DNA of 64,000 nt from an uncultured Planctomycetales bacterium. Its GTDB lineage: Bacteria > Omnitrophota > Gorgyraeia > Zapsychrales > JANLHA01. The stretch lies in NCBI GenBank assembly GCA_964489065.1, contig CAZAXH010000001.1, positions 374,358 to 438,357 of the forward strand, in the 5' to 3' direction. The notes under the pieces were generated by a model. That model searched no databases, was not told the DNA's origin, and was given only the letters and a program-made list of their open reading frames with translations. The translations under genes and the position numbers were made by a program. This document shows positions 19,295-61,560 of the stretch, piece by piece; positions within the stretch are counted from its first letter, which is position 1, and each line of letters begins with the position of its first letter.

Positions 19295-21223
19295 TTATTT
19301 GCTATCATCTTCCGCTTTAAAATCAGCATCAATGACATCATCCTTGCTCCCGCCAGCAGACCCCTCTTTTTGAGAAGAACCGCCCTGGCCCCGGGGCTTC
19401 GCTTCAGGCTGGGGCTCCTCCGTCCCTTGAGCCGCCTGCTGGGACGCCGTGGCCTTATAAATTTCTTCCGCCAGCTTATGACTCACCTTCTGCAAGGATT
19501 CCATCCCCGCCTTGATTTTCTCCAAGTCGTGACTCTTCACGGATTCCTTAAGCCGGCCAATTTCCTTTTCAATATTCTCCTTATCCCCGGCCGGAATTTT
19601 CTCGCCGTAATCCTTCAAAGACTTCTCCGTCGAATAAATCAGGCTGTTCGCCTGATTGACCACCTCGACCTCTTCTTTCTTCTTCTTGTCTTCTCCCGCG
19701 TACTTCTCGGCTTCTTTGACCATGCGGTCGATCTCGTCCTCTGATAATTTCGTCGGGGCGGTAATCCGGATCGACTGTTCCTTACCGGTGCCTTTATCCT
19801 TGGCCGACACGTGAACGATCCCGTCCGTATCAATGTCAAACGTCACTTCCACCTGAGGCACCCCTCGGGGAGCCGGAGGTATCCCGACCAGATCAAAACG
19901 GCCCAGTTCCGTATTATCATTGGCCATCTGCCGTTCTCCCTGCAGGACGCGAATGGTGACCGCCGGCTGATTATCTTCCGCCGTAGAAAAAACCTGGCTC
20001 TTTTTCGTAGGGATGGTGGTGTTACGTTCAATCAGTTTCGTAAAAACGCCCCCCAGGGTTTCAATCCCCAGCGAAAGGGGCGTCACGTCCAATAACAACA
20101 CTTCCTTAGCCTCGCCTCTCACAATACCTGCCTGGATCGCCGCGCCCAAAGCCACGCATTCCATCGGATCAATCCCACGCTCGATCTTCTGGCCCACTTC
20201 TTTCTCAACGAACTGCTGAATGATCGGCATACGGGTCGGTCCACCGACAAGGATAATCCGGTCAATTTTCACCTGTTCCCCCAGCTTGCCGCTGGCATCC
20301 TTAAGCGCCTGGATAATAGGACCGCGGCAGCGCTCAACGATGCTGCTGATCAGGCTCTCGAGCTTCGCCCGCTCAATGGTCATGTTCAAATGTTTCGGGC
20401 CTGTCTGATCCGCCGTGATGAACGGCAAATTGATATCCGTAGAAATCGTGCTGGACAACTCGACCTTGGCTTTTTCCGCCGCTTCCCGCAGCCGCTGAAA
20501 AGCCATCTTATCTTTGCCCAGATCAATCCCGGATTCCTTCTTAAATTCTCCCGTAATATAGTCAATAAGCAGGTTATCCATGTCCGTCCCGCCCAGATTG
20601 TTATCTCCGCTGGTGGACAAAACCTCGAACGTCGCGGCCTTGCTCTCTTCATCCCACCCCATCTCCAGCACCGTAACATCCAGCGTTCCTCCGCCGAAAT
20701 CAAAGACCATGATCTTCTGCTCTTTACCGGCTTTATCCAGGCCGTACGCCAGGCAGGCTGCTGTAGGCTCATTAATGATCCGCAGTACTTTCAGACCGGC
20801 GATTTCCCCGGCATCCTTCGTAGCTTGACGCTGATTATCATTAAAGTACGCCGGAACGGTGATCACCGCTTCTTCAACAGGTTCACCAAGATATTTCTCG
20901 GCATCGACCTTAATTTTCTGCAGGATAAACGCGCTGATCTGCTGGGCGGTAAACTCTTTATCCCACACCTTAAATTTATGATTGGTCCCCATTTTGCGTT
21001 TGGCCGCGTAAATCGTCCCCTCTGAATTAATCGGAGCCTGCCGCCGGGCAGGTTCGCCCACCAGCCGCTGACCTTCTTTCGTGAATGCGACAAAAGACGG
21101 GAACGCTTTGCCCGAGGCCACCCCGGCCCCCTCCGCAGATGGGATAATCGCCGGACGCCCACCTTCCAAAACGGCTGCCGCCGAATTAGATGTACCCAAA
21201 TCAATTCCAATTGCTTTTGCCAT
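19295..21223 (-). CDS. dnaK: Molecular chaperone DnaK (Hsp70)
   Basis: [19 protein letters not shown] and [11 protein letters not shown] Hsp70 signatures; 642 aa with an acidic C-terminal tail. Confidence 0.95.
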
Positions 21224-21240
21224 AATATCGTCCCTCCGTA

Positions 21241-21900
21241 TTACGTTAAATCTTCGTTATTTTCTGAAATCTTCCCTTCGGCCTCTTCCGCCGGCCGCTC
21301 TTCCGGAACATCCGGCCGGGCGGTTTTTTCGACCGCAACCTTAACCTTGGCGGTCCGGATCACCCGGTCCCCCAAGGAATACCCTTTTTGAAATTCCTCA
21401 ACCACCTGAACGCCTTTCACCTCATCGCTTTCCACCTGCATAAGGATTTCATGGTAATGCGGGTCGAATTTCTGGCCAACCGCTTCCATCGGCTTGACGG
21501 AATAATTCTTTAACATATCCCGCACCCTGGCCATAACCATTTCGACCCCTTTAAGAAAGGCTTTATAATCCTGATGCTGCGCACGCGCCGCGTCAACGGT
21601 CCGGTCCAGGTCATCGAGGATCGACAGAAAATCAACAAGAAGCCGCTCATTGGCATATTTCACATACTCGATCCGCTCCCTTTCATACCGTTTACGCGTA
21701 TTTTCAAATTCCGCGCAAAGGCGGATATATTTGTCCCGAGTCTCCTGCAGCTGCGCCTTTAACAACGCGCTGTTATCCGCCGCTGCCGCTTCTATTTTCG
21801 TATCTTGCGCTGTTTCCCCTTGGGCCTTTTCAGGGGACGGGTTTTCCTGACCTACAGGGTGATCAGCCGAAGCTTGACTTTTCTTTTTATTTTCAAACAT
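21241..21900 (-). CDS. grpE: Nucleotide exchange factor GrpE
   Basis: Coiled-coil region and C-terminal beta-domain; GrpE-typical [16 protein letters not shown] motif; likely ATG start at MFENKKK, and the track start at 21924 is a GTG overlapping the hrcA stop. Confidence 0.85.
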
Positions 21901-21920
21901 ATTTCCAATCCCTTTAGAAA

Positions 21921-22655
21921 TCACATTATTTCTTCAATCACGCTTTTTAAATAATCCAAAGCCGAAACGACACGCGCATAATCCATTCGCTGGGGCCCCA
22001 AGACAGCAATGCGGCCACAGGCACCGAGTGAAGTTCTGAAGCTCGAAACCGCCAAGGCACAGGAATCAGAAATACTTTCACATGCAATTTCGCTTCCGAT
22101 TAAAATTTTCACCTTTTTTTCCAATTCCTGATTGATAATCGACAGCAACCGCTCTTTTTCTTCCAAAATAACCAAAATCCCCCGGATTTTCTGGATATCC
22201 TGGTATTCCGGATATGTCACGACATAATTTGTGCCACGGCAAAACAGTCGCCCCTGCCAGCAATCTACGGACACAATACTGGTATAATGCGTCATATCTG
22301 AAAGCAGTTGCGACGTTTTCTCCAGCAATGCTTCCAAATCCTTGACGCCCTGGTCATATTCCTCCTTAATGCGGGCTTTTTCCTCCTCGAGAAGCTTTAT
22401 TTCAAACATTAAATTGTCCACATAAAACCGGTACCCATCCTGGGTGGGAATCCTCCCGGCAGAAACATGAGGGTGTGTCAGGAAGCCTTCCTCTTCCAGT
22501 TCAGCGAGGATATTCCGGATTGTCGCAGAACTTAAATCCGGCAAATATTCATGAGCGATAAATGAAGAACTGACCGGAGACACGGTTTTGATATATTCAT
22601 TGACAACAATCCCCAAAACCCTTTCTTTCCTGATCTGGTAGTCAACATTTTTCAT
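21921..22655 (-). CDS. hrcA: Heat-inducible transcription repressor HrcA
   Basis: N-terminal winged-helix with LSSATIRNILAELEEEGFLTHPHVSAGRIPTQDGYRFYVD, diagnostic for HrcA; first gene of the hrcA-grpE-dnaK operon; a CIRCE-like element lies immediately upstream. Confidence 0.8.
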   Translation of the reverse strand: MKNVDYQIRKERVLGIVVNEYIKTVSPVSSSFIAHEYLPDLSSATIRNILAELEEEGFLTHPHVSAGRIPTQDGYRFYVDNLMFEIKLLEEEKARIKEEYDQGVKDLEALLEKTSQLLSDMTHYTSIVSVDCWQGRLFCRGTNYVVTYPEYQDIQKIRGILVILEEKERLLSIINQELEKKVKILIGSEIACESISDSCALAVSSFRTSLGACGRIAVLGPQRMDYARVVSALDYLKSVIEEIM

Positions 22656-22710: not shown

Positions 22711-22737
22711 TTAGCACTCAGCCTGTGGGATTGCTAG
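22711..22737. promoter_or_regulatory. CIRCE-like HrcA operator upstream of hrcA (TTAGCACTC-N9-GATTGCTAG)
   Basis: The left arm matches the CIRCE consensus TTAGCACTC exactly; the right arm has 2 mismatches to GAGTGCTAA, with 9-nt spacing; it lies ~55-80 bp upstream of the hrcA start. Confidence 0.6.
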
Positions 22738-22846
22738 GCGGATATTATAACAAAATTACCATCATTGTCAATAATGTTTTTCTCTCCCCAACCCCCGGTT
22801 TTCGGCACATAGAAATTTCTGAAAACCGGGGACAAGAGGACGTCTA

Positions 22847-23464
22847 TCACGTGTTCTTTCGGGTTTTCAAAAGGCTGTCAATAAGGTGGCTGGAACCGAC
22901 TCCACAGCTAATAATAGACCGCATGGCTTCTTCAACCGAAACCTGAGTCACGAAGACCGTACCTGCCGGAAGATGAAAAATCAGACCGGTTGTGGGATTG
23001 GGAGCGGTGGGAACAAAAACCGTGTAGCTCCCGTCCTGGTGTTCATCGGTCACAAAAGCCGTCATTAAGACTCCCGACCCGCCGATGTCCACCAGCGCTA
23101 CTTTTGAGAAAAAATGCTTCTTCCCTCCCAGTATTTGCAGGACTGTTTCCTTAATCAAATTATACCCAGGGGCAATTTTAAGGAATTTTTCTTCAATCAA
23201 GGAATGAACGATCCGCCCCACTCCGGTGCGGACCACGACCCCGACCACAAAACACAAAAGCACGATAACAAGCAGGCCCAGGAAGTCCGCGAGAAGCTCC
23301 TTCACGCGAGAATGCGCCACGATCAGATTCGTTATCGGCTGCAATAAACCCGTGATGAAATTAAACAGCCAGCTGAAAACCGTGAACAAAATCGCGACCG
23401 GGAGAATCACGGTCAACCCGCCGATAACTGAAGTTTTAAAAAAACGTTTCAATCTGGCAACCAT
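22847..23464 (-). CDS. DUF502 family membrane protein
   Basis: 205 aa, two N-terminal TM helices followed by a conserved soluble domain with the pattern typical of DUF502; unknown function. Confidence 0.55.
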   Translation of the reverse strand: MVARLKRFFKTSVIGGLTVILPVAILFTVFSWLFNFITGLLQPITNLIVAHSRVKELLADFLGLLVIVLLCFVVGVVVRTGVGRIVHSLIEEKFLKIAPGYNLIKETVLQILGGKKHFFSKVALVDIGGSGVLMTAFVTDEHQDGSYTVFVPTAPNPTTGLIFHLPAGTVFVTQVSVEEAMRSIISCGVGSSHLIDSLLKTRKNT

Positions 23465-23473
23465 AAGTGGAAA

Positions 23474-24148
23474 CTATGTCCTTGCCTTCATTTCCGTCAA
23501 TTTAACAATCAAAGGAAGGATCTTTTTTATGTACTCTTCAATAGAAGACACATTCAACTGCAAATTAAGCAGACTGGGTTTAAGCCCCCCACCCGGAGGA
23601 TGAAAATGCAGGATAACAAAACCTTCAACAACTTCCAGCGACATAACGGGATGCCCTACGGAGTCCCTGTTTTTAAAAGATTCAAATATCTTCTGTATTT
23701 TATCGTCGTTTAACACTTCAACCGCCTTAAGCCCGTCATTCGTACTCAATTCAAAATCGCCCAACCCTTTCGGCAAGGGAATACGCGTCAGCGCCTGCGG
23801 GTTGGCGACATCCAGGAGAGAATCCAGGCTGGCCCGCATGGACTGCCGGCTGCGTTCTGTAAAATTCAGCGTCAGCGGAAGGGGAGTTTGCGCTTTAAGA
23901 CAGGCGCGGTGAAGCCTTTTTCCTCCAGAAACGGTTTCCTCAATGTGCTCAAAAACAAAAGGCTTCCCCTCGTATGTGAAATCAATCCGTTGCGGATAGG
24001 CGTCATCACCTTGCAACTCTTTTCCCTGACCCAAAAATTTCGCCATAGCTTTAAGATATTTCTTGGCATCATTGGATTTACTAGTATCTTTCTTAATGAA
24101 AATAAAAATCACCAGACCGATGATCCCCAGAACAATCAAATTGTTCAT
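23474..24148 (-). CDS. Hypothetical N-terminally anchored membrane protein
   Basis: 224 aa; single N-terminal TM (LIVLGIIGLVIFIFI); no recognisable domain. Confidence 0.4.
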   Translation of the reverse strand: MNNLIVLGIIGLVIFIFIKKDTSKSNDAKKYLKAMAKFLGQGKELQGDDAYPQRIDFTYEGKPFVFEHIEETVSGGKRLHRACLKAQTPLPLTLNFTERSRQSMRASLDSLLDVANPQALTRIPLPKGLGDFELSTNDGLKAVEVLNDDKIQKIFESFKNRDSVGHPVMSLEVVEGFVILHFHPPGGGLKPSLLNLQLNVSSIEEYIKKILPLIVKLTEMKART

Positions 24149-24368
24149 ACCCTATCCTTTGCCCGTTAAACCACGCCCCAAGCCATACAGGGCGCCGCGC
24201 CTAATTTTAAGGGAGATCCACGGGAAAAACAGCCCGGGCGGCCATCCTTAAGCCTTGAAATAATCCAGTTTATGAACGCAAAAAATAACGCGCAAAACGA
24301 CCACTTTATAAGTATTCCTATTCTATCAAATCATTATAATTTCTCAATATATTATCTAAGGAATCCTG

Positions 24369-26951
24369 TCACTGTCTTTTAATCACCAGCTCACTCCCAT
24401 CCGGAGCGACATCCATGTTTACACAATCGCCCTCGGCAACGCCTCCCTTAAGAACCAAGAGGGCTATAGGATCCTGCGCGTATTTCTGCACCACCCGCTT
24501 TAAGGGCCTAGCGCCATAAACCGGGTCATATCCTTTCCTGCCCAGCCAGGACAAAGCATCCGGGGTCAGAACAAGTTCAATGCCTTTCCGCGATAATCTT
24601 TCCTTGAGAACGCGAATTTGAATATCCACAATCTGCCGGATATCCTCTTTTTTAAGGCGGTTAAAAATAATCTTCTCATCCACTCGGTTCAAAAATTCCG
24701 GACGGAACACCGCTTTAAGCGCGTCGTTCATACGGGATTCAATCGCGGAGCTGTTATCAGCGTCGGCAAAAAGCTCGGCCCCGATGTTAGATGTCATGAT
24801 AATGATCGTATTCCTGAAATTAACGACCCGGCCCTGCCCATCGGTCAGCCGCCCGTCATCCAGGATCTGCAGCAAAGCGTTGAAAACATCATGGTGAGCT
24901 TTTTCGATTTCATCAAAAAGCACAACCGTATACGGCCGGCGCCGAACCGCTTCCGTGAGTTGCCCTCCTTCATCGTAACCGACATACCCCGGCGGGGCCC
25001 CGATCAGCCTGGACACGCTGTGCTTTTCCATATATTCGCTCATATCAATCCGGATCAGCGCCTCCGGGTCGTCGAACAAAAACCACGCCAGCGATTTGGC
25101 CAGTTCAGTTTTTCCGACGCCCGTGGGTCCCGCAAAAATAAACGAGCCAAGCGGACGGTGCGGGTCACTCAGGCCCGTGCGGGAGCGACGGATGGCTGCT
25201 GCGACCAAATCCACCGCCTGTTCCTGCCCCACAATCCGGGATCGCAGACTCTCTTCCATATGGATTAATTTTTCCGTCTCTCCTTCCATCAGCTTGGAGA
25301 GAGGGATATTGGTCCAATGGGACACAATTTCCGCGATATCCTGATCATCCACCTCTTCCTTTAAAAGCGCGCCGTTCGCCTGCATGGCGGACAAAGCACG
25401 GTTTTCTTCCTGTAATCTTTTCTCCAGATCCACGATAATCCCATAACGGATTTCCGCGACTTTCCCCAAATTCCCCTCTTTTTCAAAACGGACTTCCTCG
25501 CTCTTCTGCCGGTCGATTTCCGCTTTAATCGACTGAATTTTATGGATGGATTCTTTTTCGGCTTCCCAGCGCAACCGCAACTTTTTATTCCCCTCTTTCA
25601 GGCCGGCCAAGTCTTCATCCAGCGCCTGCAGGCGTTTGACCGAGGCCTCATCCTTCTCCTTCTTTAACGCCTGCCGTTCTATTTCCAGCTGCCGGATGCG
25701 GCGCTCATTGACGTCAAGTTCCTGAGGCATGCTGTCGATTTCGATACGCAGCCGCGACGCCGCCTCATCGATAAGATCGATGGCTTTGTCCGGCAAAAAC
25801 CGTTCCGTGATATACCGCTGAGATAAATTCGCGGAGGCAATCAAAGCCGCGTCCTGAATACGGACCCCGTGATGGACCTCGTAACGTTCTTTCAGCCCCC
25901 GCAAAATCGCGATCGTGTCTTCCACAGACGGCTCATTAACAATCACGGGCTGAAACCGTCGCTCCAAGGCCGCGTCTTTCTCAATATATTTACGATATTC
26001 ATCCAGGGTAGTTGCCCCCACGCAACGCAGAGCCCCCCGGGCCAACGCGGGTTTTAATAAATTGGAGGCGTCAATGGCCCCTTCCGCCTTCCCGGTTCCG
26101 ACAATGGTGTGAAGTTCATCAATAAAGAGGACCACCTCGCCATTACGGTTCTCCACGTCTTTCAATACGGCTTTTAACCGGTCTTCGAATTCTCCCCGGT
26201 ATTTAGCCCCGGCGATCAACGCCCCCATATCGAGGGTAATCACTTTTTTGTTTTTTAAGCCCTCCGGAACGTCCCCGGAAAAAATCCTCTGCGCCAGCCC
26301 CTCGGCGATAGCGGTCTTACCCACGCCCGGCTCACCAATCAGGACAGGGTTATTCTTCGTTCTCCGGGATAAAACCTGGATCACCCGCCGTATCTCCGCA
26401 TCACGCCCGATCACCGGGTCCAATTTCCTTTCCCTCGCTAAAGCCGTTAGGTCCCGCCCATAGCGCTCCAATGCCTGATATTTCTCCTCGGGATTGGCAT
26501 CCGTGACCTGCTGTCCTCCCCGGATCTCCCGCAAAACACGCAGGATGTCATCCTCTGAAACGCCGTGTTTCCTCAGTGCCCGGGCCAGGGAATTATTTCC
26601 CTCCCGGTACAGCACAAGCAGAATATGCTCCTGAGAAGCATACTCATCTTTCATCTGCCCCGCGGCCTTAACGGCCTGAGACAAAATTTTGTTCATCTCG
26701 GCTGACAAAAAAGGCGGCTGTCCTTCCACCCGGGGCTTTTTGCTTAATTCCTTCTCACAGGTTTCCGACACGGCGTCCGGCGGAACACTCAACCGTTTAA
26801 GGATTGCAGGGACGACCCCATCCTTTTCCTGCAGAAAGGCCATAATCACATGCTCGGCGTCAATCTGCTGATGCTGCAATTCTCCAGCCAGCTCAACCGC
26901 CTTTTGCAAAGATTCCTGATTTTTAATCGTAAATTTGTTTAAGGGCAACAT
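24369..26951 (-). CDS. clpB: ATP-dependent chaperone ClpB (Hsp100 disaggregase)
   Basis: 860 aa; Clp N-domain, two AAA+ modules ([10 protein letters not shown] and [12 protein letters not shown] Walker A), long coiled-coil middle domain between them. Confidence 0.9.
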
Positions 26952-26975
26952 GTCCGCCTCATTTCTTTAAAATCA

Positions 26976-27113
26976 GAAGGATCAATTCGCATTTCTAGTT
27001 TACACTCCCTCTGGTCGTGTATTAAAACCAACATCCTTCGGCTCGTTCGCTTGGGCTCTCTCGCACCGAAGGATCAATTCGCATTTCTAGTTTACACTCC
27101 CTCTGGTCGTGTA
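26976..27113. repeat. Two identical 46-bp direct repeats separated by a 46-bp spacer (92-bp period) in the clpB upstream region
   Basis: GAAGGATCAATTCGCATTTCTAGTTTACACTCCCTCTGGTCGTGTA occurs at ~26976-27021 and ~27068-27113. The spacer contains an 8-bp-stem hairpin (TCCTTCGG...CCGAAGGA). Confidence 0.6.
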
Positions 27114-27200
27114 AACTAAATGCTCATTGAAATACTGCCGGCGGCCTGGGAATGACCGGGCCATTCCCAGGATCACCTTTGCATGAAAATTAACACCTTA

Positions 27201-27650
27201 TCATTCTTTAATTTCCACGCGCCGCTCTTTAGACTCCTTCGATTTCGGGAGCACAATTTCAAGCACTCCTTCCTTATATTTCGCCTCAACGCCAGCGGCG
27301 TCGACATCCGAATCTAAAACAATCCGGCGCTCAAAGGCTCCGCAAAAGCGCTCGATTCTCCGGTAGACTTCCTCTTCGAGAGACTTTTCCTGCTTTCGTT
27401 CTCCGCTGACCGTTAACACATTGCGGTCCAAAAATATCTGAATATCTTCCTTCTTCAGTCCAGGGATATCCGCTTTAACAATGACTTTTTCGTTATTTTT
27501 TATGACATCCAAAGCCGGAGAAACGTTCCCGTTCCCTGCGTCGCCTTCCTTTATTAAAGGAAAAAATGACAGGCCGAAAAACGGGTGCCCCCAGTCAAAG
27601 ACGTCATTCCCGAGTTCTGATTGTAATTTTCTCCATTTTATAAGTGACAT
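27201..27650 (-). CDS. Hsp20/alpha-crystallin family small heat-shock protein
   Basis: 149 aa; alpha-crystallin domain with AxxxxGVLTV-like C-terminal pattern (KEGVLEIVLPK); AAGGAGG RBS. Confidence 0.85.
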   Translation of the reverse strand: MSLIKWRKLQSELGNDVFDWGHPFFGLSFFPLIKEGDAGNGNVSPALDVIKNNEKVIVKADIPGLKKEDIQIFLDRNVLTVSGERKQEKSLEEEVYRRIERFCGAFERRIVLDSDVDAAGVEAKYKEGVLEIVLPKSKESKERRVEIKE

Positions 27651-27676
27651 GGCAACCTCCTTTGTTTATTGATTTG

Positions 27677-27703
27677 TTAGCACACTCGCCCCAAGAGTGC
27701 TAT
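27677..27703. promoter_or_regulatory. CIRCE-like HrcA operator upstream of hsp20 (TTAGCACAC-N9-GAGTGCTAT)
   Basis: One mismatch in each arm relative to TTAGCACTC-N9-GAGTGCTAA; located in the 70-bp gap between the MerR-type gene and hsp20, ~25 bp upstream of the hsp20 RBS. Confidence 0.6.
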
Positions 27704-27720
27704 TTTAAAAACAAAAAAAA

Positions 27721-27999
27721 TTATTCTTCTTTATCCCGGTCTAAAATAATTTGTATTCCGCTGATATTAACTTTTTTAATAAACAATAAATATCGAATAT
27801 AATTCAATTTCTTTATCTGCTCCTTGGAATAACAGCGGGTCTTTTTTCCAATCCTCTCCGGGCAAACGATTCCTCTTTCATCCAGTTTTCTTAATGTCCA
27901 TATAGGGATATGAACCATTTCACTGACTACGCTGATGATAAATAACGGCTCGGTGGGATTAATTTCAACATCAAAATTATCAGGATAGCTTTTATCCAT
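27721..27999 (-). CDS. Small MerR-family transcriptional regulator (HspR-like heat-shock regulator candidate)
   Basis: HTH region FIISVVSEMVHIPIWTLRKLDERGIVCPERIGKKTRCYSKEQIKKLNYIRYL matches the MerR N-terminal DNA-binding fold; the likely start is the ATG of MDKSYPD preceded by GGAGG, and the track ORF extends to 28050 into the promoter; ~92 aa, lacking a long effector domain. Confidence 0.65.
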   Translation of the reverse strand: MDKSYPDNFDVEINPTEPLFIISVVSEMVHIPIWTLRKLDERGIVCPERIGKKTRCYSKEQIKKLNYIRYLLFIKKVNISGIQIILDRDKEE

Positions 28000-28026
28000 T
28001 TTTACCCCTCCGTTAATCTCGCAAAA

Positions 28027-28055
28027 AATATAACATGATCTAATTATCATGTCAA
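28027..28055 (-). promoter_or_regulatory. Consensus sigma70-type promoter (TTGACA-N17-TATATT) with embedded 7-6-7 dyad ACATGAT-CTAATT-ATCATGT
   Basis: Read on the minus strand: TTGACATGATAATTAGATCATGTTATATT, located ~30 bp upstream of the MerR-type gene RBS. The perfect inverted repeat fills the -35/-10 spacer, the typical geometry of a repressor operator overlapping a promoter. Confidence 0.5.
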
Positions 28056-28122
28056 GAATATATAACTAAAATAATTATATTTTCTAACCAGCTATAACAT
28101 CTTATATGGTAAAGACTTATTT

Positions 28123-29388
28123 CTATTCTTTGCCGGGGATCTGACTATTATAATAAACAGAGGCTATTTTGGATGGAATAGACGCGCGAAGATAAATAAC
28201 TTCATTATAATATTTCACTGCAAAAACTTGACCTTCGGCATAAGCCCGATGCACCAGGTCCATGCGGGATATAGGCAAAGTGACCTCAACTTCCGTGACA
28301 AAATCTCCGAGCAGTCGCTGCACCGTCCTCAACAGTTCCTCCACCTGTTCTCCTGTCCTAGCTGAAATCGCGACAGGATGCTGACAACTGCTCTTCAATT
28401 CACTCAACCACGCCCGGTCGTCAATAAGGTCAATCTTGTTCAATACCGTTATAATCGGCTTTTGGTCCGCCCCCAGTTCTTTTAAAACATCCAACACGGC
28501 ATTATGCCGGTTCCGAAAATGAACATCGCCGACATCCAGGACCAAAAGAAGCATGTCGGCAAAAAACACCTCTTCAAGCGTGGCCTTAAAAGATTCAATC
28601 AAATTGTGCGGCAAATTATGCATAAACCCAACGGTGTCGGAAAGGATCACCTTCTGCCGGTTGGGCAGGACACATTGCCGGGACAGCGAATCCAGCGTCG
28701 TGAACAGCCCGTCCCTGACGACCTGCTGGGCGCCGGTCAATCGGTTTAACAGCGTTGACTTCCCGGCGTTGGTATACCCCACAAGCGATATGAGAGGCAG
28801 AGACTGATCCCTCCGCTTCTTTCTCTTAGTCGCACGGTTAAGAGAGACTTCCTTTAAATTTTTCTTTAGTTTTACAATCCGTTCCCCGATACGGCGACGA
28901 TCCACTTCCAATTTGGTTTCTCCCGGCCCCAGCGTTCCGATGCCACCTCCCAGCCGGGAAAGAGCGATTCCTTTACCGACAAGCCGGGGAAGCAGATACT
29001 CCAGTTGCGCCAGTTCCACCTGCATTTTGCCTTCCTGGCTCGTGGCATGGCGCGCGAAAATATCAAGGATCAATTGGGTACGATCAATGGTTTTAACCTT
29101 AAGAATCTCCTCCAGGTTGCGCTGCTGACTCCCTTTCAAATCATGGCTGAACACGATCGTATCCACCTCAAGCTGAGCGCAAAGCGCGGCCAATTCCTGA
29201 ACTTTCCCCTCCCCCAAAAAATAAGCTGCCGTCGGTCTTTCCAGCCTGCAAAGCAAGGTCTCCACAACATCCCCGTAACAGGCCAACACCAGTTCTTCCA
29301 TTTCCCGGGCCACCTCATGGATCTGCCACCCCCGGGTCAGTTCATAATCGATCACGACCAAAAAAACTCTTTCTTTTCCGCCAGCCAT
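28123..29388 (-). CDS. hflX: GTPase HflX
   Basis: 421 aa; N-terminal HflX domain, G-domain GYTNAGKSTLLNRLT (G1), DTVGF (G3), NKID (G4). Confidence 0.85.
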   Translation of the reverse strand: MAGGKERVFLVVIDYELTRGWQIHEVAREMEELVLACYGDVVETLLCRLERPTAAYFLGEGKVQELAALCAQLEVDTIVFSHDLKGSQQRNLEEILKVKTIDRTQLILDIFARHATSQEGKMQVELAQLEYLLPRLVGKGIALSRLGGGIGTLGPGETKLEVDRRRIGERIVKLKKNLKEVSLNRATKRKKRRDQSLPLISLVGYTNAGKSTLLNRLTGAQQVVRDGLFTTLDSLSRQCVLPNRQKVILSDTVGFMHNLPHNLIESFKATLEEVFFADMLLLVLDVGDVHFRNRHNAVLDVLKELGADQKPIITVLNKIDLIDDRAWLSELKSSCQHPVAISARTGEQVEELLRTVQRLLGDFVTEVEVTLPISRMDLVHRAYAEGQVFAVKYYNEVIYLRASIPSKIASVYYNSQIPGKE

Positions 29389-29416
29389 ATACCCACACCT
29401 CTGTTTTATGATTCTT

Positions 29417-30364
29417 TCAATTTCCGGCCTTCCATCCGTCCGGCGGACAAACAGCCGTCCTGATATGCTCCGCCACGTCTCCCGCCGTCATGCCCTCGCG
29501 GATATCAACCCACTGAAGCCGCCTTTCCTTGCGAAACCACGTCAGCTGGCGTTTGGCGTAATGCCGGGTATGGAGTTTCATTAAATACCGGGCCCGGTCT
29601 TCCCCGTACTCCCGGTTCAAATACCCGGCGACTTCGCTAACACCGATAATCCGTCTCGCCGTTGGGCTTAAAGAACGCCGCAGCAAACGGCGGATTTCCT
29701 CAACCAGACCCTCTTCGAACATCTCGTCGGTTCTGGCATGGATACGGCCGTACAATGCCTCCCGAGAGCGATTAAGCGCGACCAATGTCATGCCATGACG
29801 CCCCCAGAGACCCGCCCTTTCTTGTTGAAGTTGTGAAAAAGGTTTAGCCATCGACCGGCAGATTTCCAGGGCGCGGATGATCCTTCGCACATCATGCGGA
29901 TGAATTTTCCGGGCGGCAACCGGATCCCGCTCCTCTAATTCCTTAAAAAGCACCCCGGCCCCCTCGGATTCCAAACACTGCCACAGTTCGTCCCTCAGGT
30001 ATTGTTGTTTCGGCGCCCCCAGGAAAATACCATCCAATAAAACCTGCATGTACATTCCGCTGCCGCCGGTAACAATCGCTGTTTTGTGCCGGGAATGAAT
30101 ATCCCGAATCGCCCGCCCCGCCAGGTCGTTATAAGCAGCGACATCAAACTCCTCTTCGACATCCCGGATATCAATCAGGTGATGCGGAATGCGGGCCAGG
30201 ATATCCCGCGAAGGCTTGTTTGTGGCGATATTGACATCCCGGTAAACCTGCATGGCGTCGCAAGACACGATTTCCGCCCCTAATTGCTCCGCCAGCAAGC
30301 AGGCTACGTCTGTTTTCCCGACCGCCGTCGGGCCGACAATAAAAATAACGTGCTCACAGGACAT
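29417..30364 (-). CDS. miaA: tRNA dimethylallyltransferase
   Basis: P-loop GPTAVGKT at the N-terminus, MiaA-typical length and motifs; classical miaA-hflX adjacency. Confidence 0.9.
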   Translation of the reverse strand: MSCEHVIFIVGPTAVGKTDVACLLAEQLGAEIVSCDAMQVYRDVNIATNKPSRDILARIPHHLIDIRDVEEEFDVAAYNDLAGRAIRDIHSRHKTAIVTGGSGMYMQVLLDGIFLGAPKQQYLRDELWQCLESEGAGVLFKELEERDPVAARKIHPHDVRRIIRALEICRSMAKPFSQLQQERAGLWGRHGMTLVALNRSREALYGRIHARTDEMFEEGLVEEIRRLLRRSLSPTARRIIGVSEVAGYLNREYGEDRARYLMKLHTRHYAKRQLTWFRKERRLQWVDIREGMTAGDVAEHIRTAVCPPDGWKAGN

Positions 30365-61134: not shown

Positions 61135-61560
61135 TTATTTGGAATACCGGGAAGGTTCCATTTTGAAATAATTCTTTAACCGGGACCGCGATCCGGAACC
61201 GACTTCCTCGCAGAAAGACATCCCCAATCGGTAATAATCCGCATGCTGGGCTTTCTCAATCCACTTGACTTCCCCCAACACCAGCACCGGCTGTTCCTCC
61301 GGGCCCAGGTCTATTTGCACAACGATCTTCTCATTGACAGGTATCGCCTTATTAGAAATCAACCCCACGCCACCCTGACAAATATCCACAGTGCGGATCC
61401 CCTCAAAAGCACCGCCCTCTTTCCCGTCAACAGGAACGGCACACAGCTGTCTCGACATCCTTCTTTGTTCAGTTTTTTTTCTCATAAGGCTTTCCTTGTG
61501 ACCGCGGTGATTAAGATTAATATCCAAATTAATTTTATGCTTTACCTTCTTAATAATCAA
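61135..61560 (-). CDS. PilZ-domain protein (second, tandem)
   Basis: QRRMSR (RxxxR) and DICQGGVG (DxSxxG-like) motifs; likely start at MRKKTEQRR; 10-nt gap to the next PilZ gene. Confidence 0.55.
   Translation of the reverse strand: MIIKKVKHKINLDINLNHRGHKESLMRKKTEQRRMSRQLCAVPVDGKEGGAFEGIRTVDICQGGVGLISNKAIPVNEKIVVQIDLGPEEQPVLVLGEVKWIEKAQHADYYRLGMSFCEEVGSGSRSRLKNYFKMEPSRYSK

Follow-up and report, generated by a model that had tools for sequence, protein, structure and literature searches.

In Streptomyces, the HrcA and HspR regulons are separate. Joint control is documented in other bacteria: in Campylobacter jejuni and Helicobacter pylori there are operons that both HspR and HrcA repress, and in Mycobacterium tuberculosis acr2/groEL2 is under both (PMC7464140, PMC6102357). 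The operators known for HspR extend over more than 70 bp, with low-affinity sites flanking a single site of high affinity, which is an inverted repeat in C. jejuni and H. pylori (PMC6102357, PMC7464140). As summarised in PMC7464140, the Streptomyces HspR/HAIR regulon comprises the dnaK operon, clpB and lon, with promoters that carry multiple inverted repeats, and CtsR and HrcA act as two heat-shock repressors on one chaperone operon in Staphylococcus and Streptococcus.

The locus described here, from a stretch of Omnitrophota DNA of 64,000 nucleotides (the window), resembles those of C. jejuni and H. pylori in that HrcA/CIRCE and a putative heat-shock repressor of the MerR type would act on one chaperone operon, and in having the gene of a putatively autoregulated repressor at the head of a chaperone operon, where the autoregulated hspR gene of those species is first or early. 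The original prediction called such layering unusual, which was overstated in view of the joint control known in C. jejuni, H. pylori and M. tuberculosis. The locus differs from the documented joint cases in its serial layout, with a CIRCE that lies inside the operon after the regulator gene, apparently promoter-less and preceded by a conserved T tract. In both C. jejuni and H. pylori the two repressors act on one promoter region, HrcA over the core promoter, and the CtsR and HrcA operators likewise share a single promoter region, CtsR being of another family than the MerR-type partner found here. Streptomyces also has a MerR-type repressor in a chaperone operon and clpB under HspR control, but the regulator gene is last there and first here. 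To our knowledge, gene regulation in the Omnitrophota, a widespread and almost entirely uncultured phylum, has had no experimental study, and no paper on their heat-shock regulation was found in the literature searched.

Gene order and the small regulator

The window carries on its minus strand, from which all features of the locus are read, a promoter with a dyad, a gene for a small MerR-type (HspR-like) regulator of 92 amino acids (27721..27999 including the stop codon; Pfam MerR_1, 8.3e-11), a CIRCE, hsp20 for a small heat-shock protein (27201..27650; Pfam HSP20, 2.5e-20) and the disaggregase gene clpB (24369..26951; Pfam Clp_N, AAA, AAA_lid_9, AAA_2 and ClpB_D2-small), in that order. The hflX GTPase gene (28123..29388; Pfam GTP-bdg_N, GTP-bdg_M, MMR_HSR1 and HflX_C) lies directly upstream of the regulator gene on the same strand, and hrcA-grpE-dnaK (19295..22655), with a CIRCE of its own at 22711-22737, lies 5 kb downstream of the regulator-hsp20-clpB operon. 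HrcA (hrcA, 21921-22655) is a short form of 244 amino acids that scores 221.6 bits on TIGR00331 (cut-off 197.2).

Comparison with 46 related Omnitrophota loci (47 with the window, giving 43 aligned promoters) indicates that the order hflX, merR, [hsp20], [clpB] and then hrcA-grpE-dnaK is kept across the 46. In almost all 47 loci, the regulator gene is followed by hsp20, clpB or hrcA-grpE-dnaK, and in 24 of them hflX ends less than 600 nt upstream of it. What is kept among the related loci is the gene order, a near-consensus promoter and a CIRCE after the regulator gene. The heat-shock unit that had been predicted, headed by a small MerR/HspR-like regulator, containing hsp20 and clpB and accompanied by a nearby hrcA with its own CIRCE, is present, and its arrangement is conserved.

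The regulator starts at the ATG at 27999, which is preceded by GGAGGGG; another ATG, at 28050, falls within the -35 element. The best NCBIfam match is HspR (NF047375), at 55.3 bits, which is below the equivalog cut-off of 105 and spans positions 1-74 of the 92 in the profile. Both the length of only 92 amino acids and the score below this cut-off set the protein apart from HspR of C. jejuni and H. pylori, although some JGI records call its homologues HspR. The source-given organism names of the 257 homologues are all Omnitrophota/Omnitrophica, and the family ranges in length from about 89 to 121 amino acids.

GlnR is the first gene product of an autoregulated two-gene operon with tandem operators, and it is to GlnR/TnrA that the predicted fold of the regulator is closest. 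The AF2 model (pLDDT 88) consists of a helix-turn-helix, a wing and two helices; its Foldseek matches are mostly MerR-family folds, with TM scores of 0.73-0.80 (query-normalised) and 0.84-0.91 (target-normalised) against 4R4E and 7TEA, and the best PDB sequence matches are also to GlnR (7.8e-9). The regulator shares with GlnR/TnrA (PDB 4R4E, 7TEA, 4R22) a winged helix that lacks a long coiled coil, and a PLF motif conserved at the N terminus; the coiled-coil dimerisation helix of classic MerR is absent from the AF2 model, the protein ending after a helix at 79-91. Unlike glnR and tnrA, the regulator gene has no glnA in its neighbourhood and adjoins chaperone genes, the TnrA model scores only 19 bits on the protein against a cut-off of 140, and the TGTNA-N7-TNACA box of GlnR/TnrA does not occur in the window.

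No promoter before clpB was found in the hsp20-clpB spacers of the window and the related loci. The spacer in the window contains a GC-rich inverted repeat after hsp20 (27145..27171), a hairpin without a U tract that shows one compensatory change relative to the closest relative, L001; the spacers of most loci contain similar hairpins. Upstream of clpB, the window also has a 46-nt direct repeat, perfect in its two copies (26976-27021 and 27068-27113); together these make up 1.5 copies of a tandem unit of about 92 nt, in a region (26976..27113) with a folding z of -6.6. L001 has three 89-nt copies of the unit, which is absent from all other loci compared.

The operon promoter and the palindrome upstream of it

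The predicted TTGACA-N17-TATATT promoter upstream of the regulator gene was recovered on the minus strand with a score of 11/12, the best of any sigma-70-like site in 24000-29500. Its -35 hexamer TTGACA (28050..28055) is invariant in the 43 aligned promoters except for one T in place of G, and is separated by a 17-nt spacer from TATATT (28032-28027), which a TG at 28035-28034 turns into the extended -10 element TGtTATATT (28027..28035); TG and TAT..T are kept in 39-43 of the 43 loci. The pattern CTTGACA-N17-TGnTATATT, with its spacer of 17 bp, was found in 43 of 47 loci.

The spacer of the window is filled, as predicted, by a perfect dyad, ACATGAT-N6-ATCATGT (28033..28052), and a scan of the 64-kb window for further exact copies returned only the one at 28052-28033. 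MerR-family proteins classically bind a dyad between the -35 and -10 elements, so that a dyad which is perfect, unique in the window and an exact fill of the spacer could be read as the operator of the MerR-type protein, in a classic MerR or repressor geometry. This reading, proposed originally, is very unlikely. The dyad is missing in the closest relative (L001, 97% protein identity, with the spacer aaataattatcgcatgt) and in 42 of the 43 homologous promoters. Over the 43 promoters, 56 of 172 inner-arm pairs are complementary versus 54.8 expected, a total that is matched or exceeded by 43% of column shuffles; only the window has all four inner pairs complementary, and at least one such promoter arises in 32% of shuffles. 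Two to three of the 7 bp of the dyad are by-products of the conserved ACA of TTGACA and TGT of the extended -10 element, and the conserved spacer bases, TTAG (+12) and TG (+20/21), are not symmetric. Classic MerR activation uses a spacer of 19-20 bp, but 43 of 47 loci have one of 17 bp, and the protein is predicted to lack the coiled-coil helix of classic MerR dimers. Comparison of the promoters thus does not support the dyad as a conserved control site: it is lineage-specific and encloses a conserved TTAGA half-site (28039-28043). Even a perfect dyad between the -35 and -10 elements may thus have arisen by accident in a single lineage, with some of its bases supplied by the -35 and extended -10 consensus.

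The conserved palindrome sits instead upstream of the -35 element. It is 19 bp long, with the family consensus TAGTTAGAT-A-ATCTAACTA, and its centre lies 26 bp before the first T of TTGACA, or about 62 bp before the start site; its position is fixed, its information content is high and it is conserved position by position across 43 loci. The copy in the window, TGGTTAGAAAATATAATTA (28072..28090), a candidate high-affinity operator, is recovered by a consensus search with 2 mismatches and is degenerate (TATAA for TCTAA, with TTATA as the second half-site). In a PWM scan of 567 kb, strong sites occur only upstream of the regulator gene, and the window copy scores 18.9. A metagenome scan for AGTTAGAWWWTCTAACT returned matches (at least 120), among those listed none near a merR homologue, and these were therefore taken as chance. 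TTAGA-like half-sites stand 22 bp apart, at -32, -10, +12 and +34 when counted from the first T of TTGACA, and cross the -35, the -10 and the start region.

The palindrome and the half-sites together are a candidate operator of the small MerR protein, to judge from their conservation and placement. With its candidate inverted repeat flanked by presumably weaker half-sites at 22-bp spacing, such an operator would resemble those of HspR in C. jejuni and H. pylori, although TAGTTAGAT-A-ATCTAACTA is not the HAIR sequence CTTGAGT-N7-ACTCAAG bound there and in Streptomyces; the only match to HAIR in the window with up to 3 mismatches is at 61264, which equals chance expectation, and there is none at the operon. 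Because the palindrome and the regulator gene always co-occur, co-occurrence alone cannot name the binding protein and another factor could bind, or the palindrome could be a class-I-like activator site, a centre near -62 being a typical activator position. It is nevertheless improbable that the palindrome serves a different factor or activation in place of nucleating an autorepressor. Activation appears unnecessary since the promoter is already near-perfect, with an extended -10 element and an optimal spacer; the palindrome occurs at the regulator gene only, within the 567 kb scanned; and HspR is documented to bind well upstream of core promoters (PMC7464140).

The junction between the regulator gene and hsp20

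The CIRCE that had been predicted between the MerR-type gene and hsp20 is present at 27677-27703. It reads ATAGCACTC-N9-GTGTGCTAA and differs at 2 positions from the consensus searched, TTAGCACTC-N9-GAGTGCTAA; the scan of the window (up to 3 mismatches) yielded two sites with 2 mismatches each, versus 0.01 expected by chance, the other being the CIRCE of hrcA. A CIRCE directly follows the regulator gene in 43 of 47 loci, where it precedes hsp20 (29 loci), clpB (10) or hrcA (4); it is wholly missing in one locus (L009). In the window it lies about 350 bp downstream of the operon promoter and is a candidate site for a roadblock by HrcA.

The two CIRCE elements differ in their surroundings. The hrcA promoter and its CIRCE (22711..22771) have a conventional layout, with TTGACA at 22766-22771, TATAAT at 22744-22749 and, after 6 nt, the CIRCE at 22711-22737. 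This CIRCE is conserved in 37 of 41 loci, in 32 of which (out of the 37) the promoter scores 12/12, and the -10 element ends about 6 nt upstream of it in most loci and up to 11 nt in a few. A CIRCE over the start site, just downstream of a -10 element, is thus encountered at hrcA but not at the intra-operon CIRCE, where the best sigma-70 scores are 5-10 of 12 and neither a -35 nor a -10 element is conserved.

What accompanies the intra-operon CIRCE is a hairpin-less T8 tract (27713..27720), which directly follows the regulator stop codon and ends 10 nt before the CIRCE. A T run of at least 6 ends at this same position in 35 of 43 loci, versus a background of 0.9%, and the tract of T6-8 keeps its fixed distance of 10 nt whatever gene comes next. 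The tract and the CIRCE behave as an element of the gene end, being kept even where hrcA follows with its full promoter and second CIRCE (L016, L040, L043 and L045). The tract was rejected as the tail of an intrinsic terminator: the median energy of the preceding hairpin is 0 kcal/mol, and a hairpin of -8 kcal/mol or lower precedes it in 1 of 41 loci versus 19% of control positions. A sigma-54 interpretation of the TTGGCAC variants of this CIRCE was also discarded, the spacing to the GC element being inconsistent by eye.

The junction could separate two transcription units, such that a promoter belonging to the intra-operon CIRCE, weak or non-canonical, uses the T tract or TAAATT as its -10 or UP-like element, hsp20-clpB is ordinarily repressed by HrcA, and the MerR protein controls only itself. 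The usual place of a CIRCE is over a promoter or start site, which is also where that of hrcA lies. The stop codon and T run together give, in most loci, TAAATT or TAATTT with the key -10 positions, TAAATT at -20 to -15 resembling a -10 element, and a conserved G follows 7 nt downstream; AAATTTTTTT followed by N9 may also resemble an UP element before TTAGCA. This alternative is nonetheless rather doubtful, since a conserved -35 is lacking, as is a TG extension, sigma-70 scores of at best 5-10 of 12 compare with 12/12 at most hrcA promoters, the T run is retained where no -10-like A exists (L021 and L027), and the T tract and CIRCE stand directly before a complete hrcA promoter with its own CIRCE (in L016 and L043). 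An internal promoter within the merR coding sequence was rejected as well, the codon alignment having no signal beyond coding constraint, and this lack of a synonymous-site sign counts against separate units.

Small heat-shock genes are classic targets of RNA thermometers, and the U run might pair with the hsp20 Shine-Dalgarno sequence as a fourU-like thermometer enclosing the CIRCE hairpin, or form with that hairpin a processing or stability element. In the minimum free energy fold predicted for the window (-19.4 kcal/mol, z = -1.95), pairing between UAAUUUUUUUUGUUU and AAACAAAGGAGGUUG encloses the CIRCE hairpin, and the U run of L001 is predicted to pair with the hsp20 Shine-Dalgarno sequence likewise. 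Yet at least 3 such pairs form in only 7 of 38 loci, and the T tract is fixed relative to the CIRCE, whereas the Shine-Dalgarno sequence lies 1 to about 50 nt downstream of it. Selection for a hairpin in the arms of this CIRCE was rejected: A-C mismatches are common, so that there is no covariation, and compensatory pairs are lacking. A search against Rfam gave no match to the window at the gathering threshold, and 26900-28150 had none even with E raised to 1. Control at the RNA level is accordingly unlikely to account for the junction.

Two candidate repressors in series

The proposal that accommodates these features, with about an even chance of being correct, is a phylum-wide Omnitrophota heat-shock operon with one near-consensus sigma-70 promoter and two repressors in series. 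The binding partners, the transcript structure and the roadblock mechanism it includes are read from the way the sequence elements are conserved and arranged, and from the protein families and synteny described above. In the first step, the minimal MerR protein of 92 amino acids would repress its own promoter, nucleating on the TAGTTAGAT-A-ATCTAACTA palindrome about 62 bp upstream of the start site and spreading cooperatively over the TTAGA-like half-sites spaced at 22 bp, to cover the -35 element, the spacer and -10 element, and the start region; the spacer dyad would merely overlap the third half-site. In the second, HrcA, whose gene lies 5 kb downstream behind a CIRCE-controlled promoter of its own, would bind the intra-operon CIRCE and stop polymerases that started at the operon promoter. 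The active site of a polymerase blocked in this way would lie in the T tract, 10-17 nt upstream of this CIRCE, where a weak rU:dA hybrid would favour backtracking or release. The regulator would then always be made, and hsp20 and clpB would be expressed only when heat or chaperone titration inactivates both repressors.

Repressors that act as roadblocks in bacteria include PurR, CodY and CcpA (PMC10310618), and where Reb1 is bound, RNA polymerase I pauses 15 bp upstream of it, within a T-rich element (PMC12366685). HrcA at the intra-operon CIRCE may be analogous to these as a DNA-bound protein downstream of a promoter, and the position of the T tract, 10-17 bp upstream of the CIRCE, resembles that of the T-rich element; RNA polymerase I also needs an upstream RNA hairpin, however, and none is found here. 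The literature searched contained neither a case of HrcA acting as a roadblock nor a bacterial repressor site paired with a T tract.

The T tract and CIRCE may more specifically form a conditional, HrcA-dependent terminator, at which HrcA stalls polymerase and the weak rU:dA hybrid promotes release, and which together with the minimal HspR-like autorepressor on its new operator would constitute a serial AND gate for hsp20 and clpB; this is a tentative suggestion, with a likelihood well short of even. If true, such a terminator would parallel, in bacteria, the Reb1/T-rich terminator of RNA polymerase I, and HrcA, which is among the most widespread of bacterial repressors, would gain a new mode of action. 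It would also account for the different expression of a regulator gene and its targets from a single promoter. The locus offers a testable picture of the heat-shock circuit of the Omnitrophota, with a minimal HspR-like regulator that has a candidate operator unlike HAIR, and an intra-operon CIRCE behind a T tract.

Gene order and the small MerR-type regulator

The genes concerned all lie on the minus strand of the window: hflX (28123-29388), a 123-nt spacer, a gene for a 92-aa MerR_1 protein (27721-27999), hsp20 (27201-27650), a structured 249-nt spacer, clpB (24369-26951), two genes of unknown function (22847-24148, encoding a 224-aa protein without a Pfam match and a 205-aa DUF502 protein) and hrcA (21921-22655), followed by grpE and dnaK. 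A scan with one genome per species yielded 46 related loci (47 with the window), nearly all titled Omnitrophota and a few labelled Planctomycetales or unclassified; by tblastn with the window proteins, the order hflX, regulator, optional hsp20, optional clpB and hrcA-grpE-dnaK is kept across them. The gap between clpB and hrcA is of similar size in many loci. HflX is a ribosome-associated GTPase with a link to heat stress in E. coli; in 24 of 47 loci, fewer than 600 nt separate the end of its gene from the regulator gene downstream on the same strand. No terminator was seen in the 123-nt spacer of the window, so that read-through from hflX into the operon is possible.

The regulator starts at the ATG at 27999, with GGAGGGG just before it; a longer reading frame, from 28050, begins inside the -35 hexamer of the operon promoter. 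For this protein 257 homologues of about 89-121 aa were detected, some of them named HspR in JGI records, and every organism name given by a source is Candidatus Omnitrophota or Omnitrophica. Conservation is strong, with 22 invariant residues across 23 diverse sequences. In the AlphaFold model (pLDDT 88) the helix-turn-helix and wing are followed by two more helices, after which the chain ends; the long helix through which classic MerR proteins dimerise is absent. GlnR and TnrA are the best solved relatives, and GlnR-DNA complexes rank first in Foldseek (4R4E and 7TEA, TM-scores of 0.73-0.80 normalised to the query and 0.84-0.91 to the target). Among NCBIfam models the HspR equivalog is the best match, at 55 bits under a cut-off of 105, and neither the HAIR box of HspR (CTTGAGT-N7-ACTCAAG) nor the TnrA box (TGTNA-N7-TNACA) is present, which places the regulator outside HspR both by family score and by operator. 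In function it probably works like HspR, as the MerR-type head of a chaperone operon.

The operon promoter and its palindromes

The operon promoter (minus strand; TTGACA at 28055-28050, a 17-nt spacer and TGtTATATT at 28035-28027) is the best sigma-70-like site within 24000-29500, matching 11/12 positions plus the TG extension, and 43 of 47 loci, counting the window, have CTTGACA-N17-TGnTATATT ahead of the regulator gene. With positions counted from the first T of TTGACA, the 43 aligned promoters give the consensus taGTTAGATaAtCTAAcTAtt.t.aTtAgAa...CTTGACAaaataaTTAg.ttaTG.TATATTTtta.TGag, which starts with a perfect 19-bp palindrome, TAGTTAGAT-A-ATCTAACTA, centred at -26 and so approximately 62 bp before the expected start of transcription. 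Of the 43 loci, 38-41 keep its core positions; the window copy (28072-28090, minus strand, TTAGAAAATATAA) is slightly degenerate. TTAGA-like motifs recur at -32, -10 and +12, with a weaker version, TGAG, at +34; the period is 22 bp or about two helical turns, such that the later copies overlap the -35, the spacer and -10, and the start region. The C directly before TTGACA (33/43) is consistent with a second palindrome, as part of its right half-site. Across 567 kb, comprising the window and all loci to 6 kb either side of the regulator gene, a position weight matrix finds strong matches to the palindrome only upstream of the regulator gene; in a metagenome scan, none of the matches listed, at least 120, lay near a merR homologue, and they were taken as chance. 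A promoter this close to consensus, with its spacer of optimal length, would call for repression rather than activation. The preferred reading is autorepression by cooperative spreading of the regulator.

The original prediction had assigned the operator role to a perfect dyad within the promoter spacer, ACATGAT-N6-ATCATGT (28052-28033, minus strand). Promoter, dyad and the CIRCE (HrcA operator) downstream are present in the window as described, but the dyad is not conserved, and the 64 kb hold no second exact copy of it. The closest relative (L001, 97% protein identity) lacks it, its spacer being aaataattatcgcatgt. All four inner pairs of the dyad are complementary in the window only; over the 43 promoters, 56 of 172 inner pairs are complementary versus 54.8 expected from column shuffles, 32% of which contain at least one promoter with four of four. 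The outer pairs (C4-G21 in 39/43, A5-T20 in 42/43, A3-T22 in only 19/43) are forced by the conserved bases of TTGACA and of the extended -10 TG. From these alignments it is concluded that the dyad is probably a lineage-specific coincidence overlapping a real conserved element.

The hsp20-clpB spacer and the short HrcA

In most loci the hsp20-clpB spacer contains a GC-rich hairpin without a U tract after hsp20 (for example L002, L012, L014, L015, L022, L029, L030 and L034), and no promoter was found in most of these spacers. The hairpin of the window (27145-27171, minus strand) differs from that of L001 by one compensatory pair, T-A to G-C. This suggests that hsp20 and clpB are co-transcribed, with an internal hairpin that may be stabilising or attenuating. 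The spacer of the window folds far better than shuffled sequences (z = -6.6) and contains perfect 46-nt direct repeats 92 nt apart (26976-27021 and 27068-27113), whereas L001 has three full 89-nt tandem units in the same place (1693-1959), so that near-identical genomes differ in copy number. Each unit holds a pair of hairpins, TACAC...GTGTA and CCTTCGG...CCGAAGG. No other locus has the repeat, and Rfam gave no match to it.

HrcA (21921-22655) has only 244 aa versus about 338 positions of TIGR00331, which it matches in two stretches, so that a middle segment is missing; this short form is kept in all 41 hrcA-bearing loci.

CIRCE sites, the T tract and a proposed serial control

Two CIRCE-like sites were found in the 64 kb (0.01 expected at three or fewer mismatches), both on the minus strand: site 1 (27677-27703), between the regulator gene and hsp20, and site 2 (22711-22737), in front of hrcA, which bears out the prediction that hrcA, near hsp20-clpB, has a CIRCE of its own. 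Site 2 is a textbook arrangement, with TTGACA-N16/17-TATAAT (12/12) ending about 6 nt upstream in most loci. It is systematically asymmetric: 28 of 37 loci have A or T at left-arm position 7, facing a G at position 21 for which a perfect palindrome would need C. Site 1, unlike site 2, mostly has C-G at this pair.

In 43 of 47 loci, site 1 (four or fewer mismatches) lies 3' of the regulator gene, whichever gene comes next (hsp20 in 29, clpB in 10, hrcA in 4). It is preceded by the consensus tAAatTTTTTTg...t.aAa, with six or more consecutive T in 35 of 43 loci (five or more in 41); the run always ends 10 nt ahead of the site, and the background frequency of such runs is 0.9%. The T tract often begins directly after the regulator stop codon, and its position is unchanged where the stop codon sits 40 or 115 nt upstream. 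In four loci with the stop codon 40 nt upstream of site 1 (L006, L013, L021 and L027), GGAGG-N6-ATG, seen by eye, opens a short putative frame in which the T tract would read Phe-Phe and the CIRCE Leu-Ala-Leu.

Three explanations of the T tract found no support. As the tail of an intrinsic terminator it would need a hairpin before it, for which the median energy is 0 kcal/mol. As a conserved anti-Shine-Dalgarno strand it pairs strongly in the window, yet in only 7 of 38 loci overall, the distance to the Shine-Dalgarno sequence varying from 1 to about 50 nt. For a promoter within the regulator coding sequence, synonymous sites gave no signal. The main rival, in which the T tract carries a weak promoter of non-canonical type, could draw on TAAATT, which is -10-like in most loci, but is considered unlikely; no conserved -35 or -10 was found for site 1 across loci (best sigma-70 scores 5-10/12). 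In L016, L040, L043 and L045 the T tract and site 1 are kept directly before a complete hrcA promoter with its site 2, and the pair thus appears to behave as an element that goes with the regulator gene's end rather than with a promoter further downstream.

In the proposed model, a single strong promoter would drive the regulator gene, hsp20 and clpB, with autorepression at that promoter as a first lock and HrcA on site 1, blocking elongating polymerases, as a second. When a bound protein halts a polymerase, the active site comes to lie roughly 13-15 bp upstream of it, or 15 bp in the case of Pol I at Reb1 (PMC12366685). HrcA footprints span 30-40 bp around a CIRCE (PMC7464140); together, footprint and stall distance would put the 3' end of the transcript in or at the T tract (-17 to -10), where the weakest rU:dA hybrid would make backtracking or release more likely. 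PurR, GalR, CodY and CcpA are established roadblock repressors (PMC10310618); a literature search on HrcA as a roadblock returned nothing relevant, and its action at site 1 is a hypothesis. L009, in which clpB is joined to the regulator gene by a 25-nt spacer without CIRCE and T tract, is a natural variant with what would be the first lock only.

The description of this layering as unusual was overstated, since dual control by HspR and HrcA is already known: in C. jejuni and H. pylori, groESL and hrcA-grpE-dnaK are targets of both repressors, and acr2 and groEL2 are under both in M. tuberculosis, while staphylococci and streptococci have promoters common to CtsR and HrcA (PMC7464140). No paper on heat-shock regulation in Omnitrophota was found. 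What is new is the phylum, the minimal 92-aa regulator and the candidate operator sequence, together with the serial layout, in which an apparently promoter-less CIRCE stands behind a T tract.
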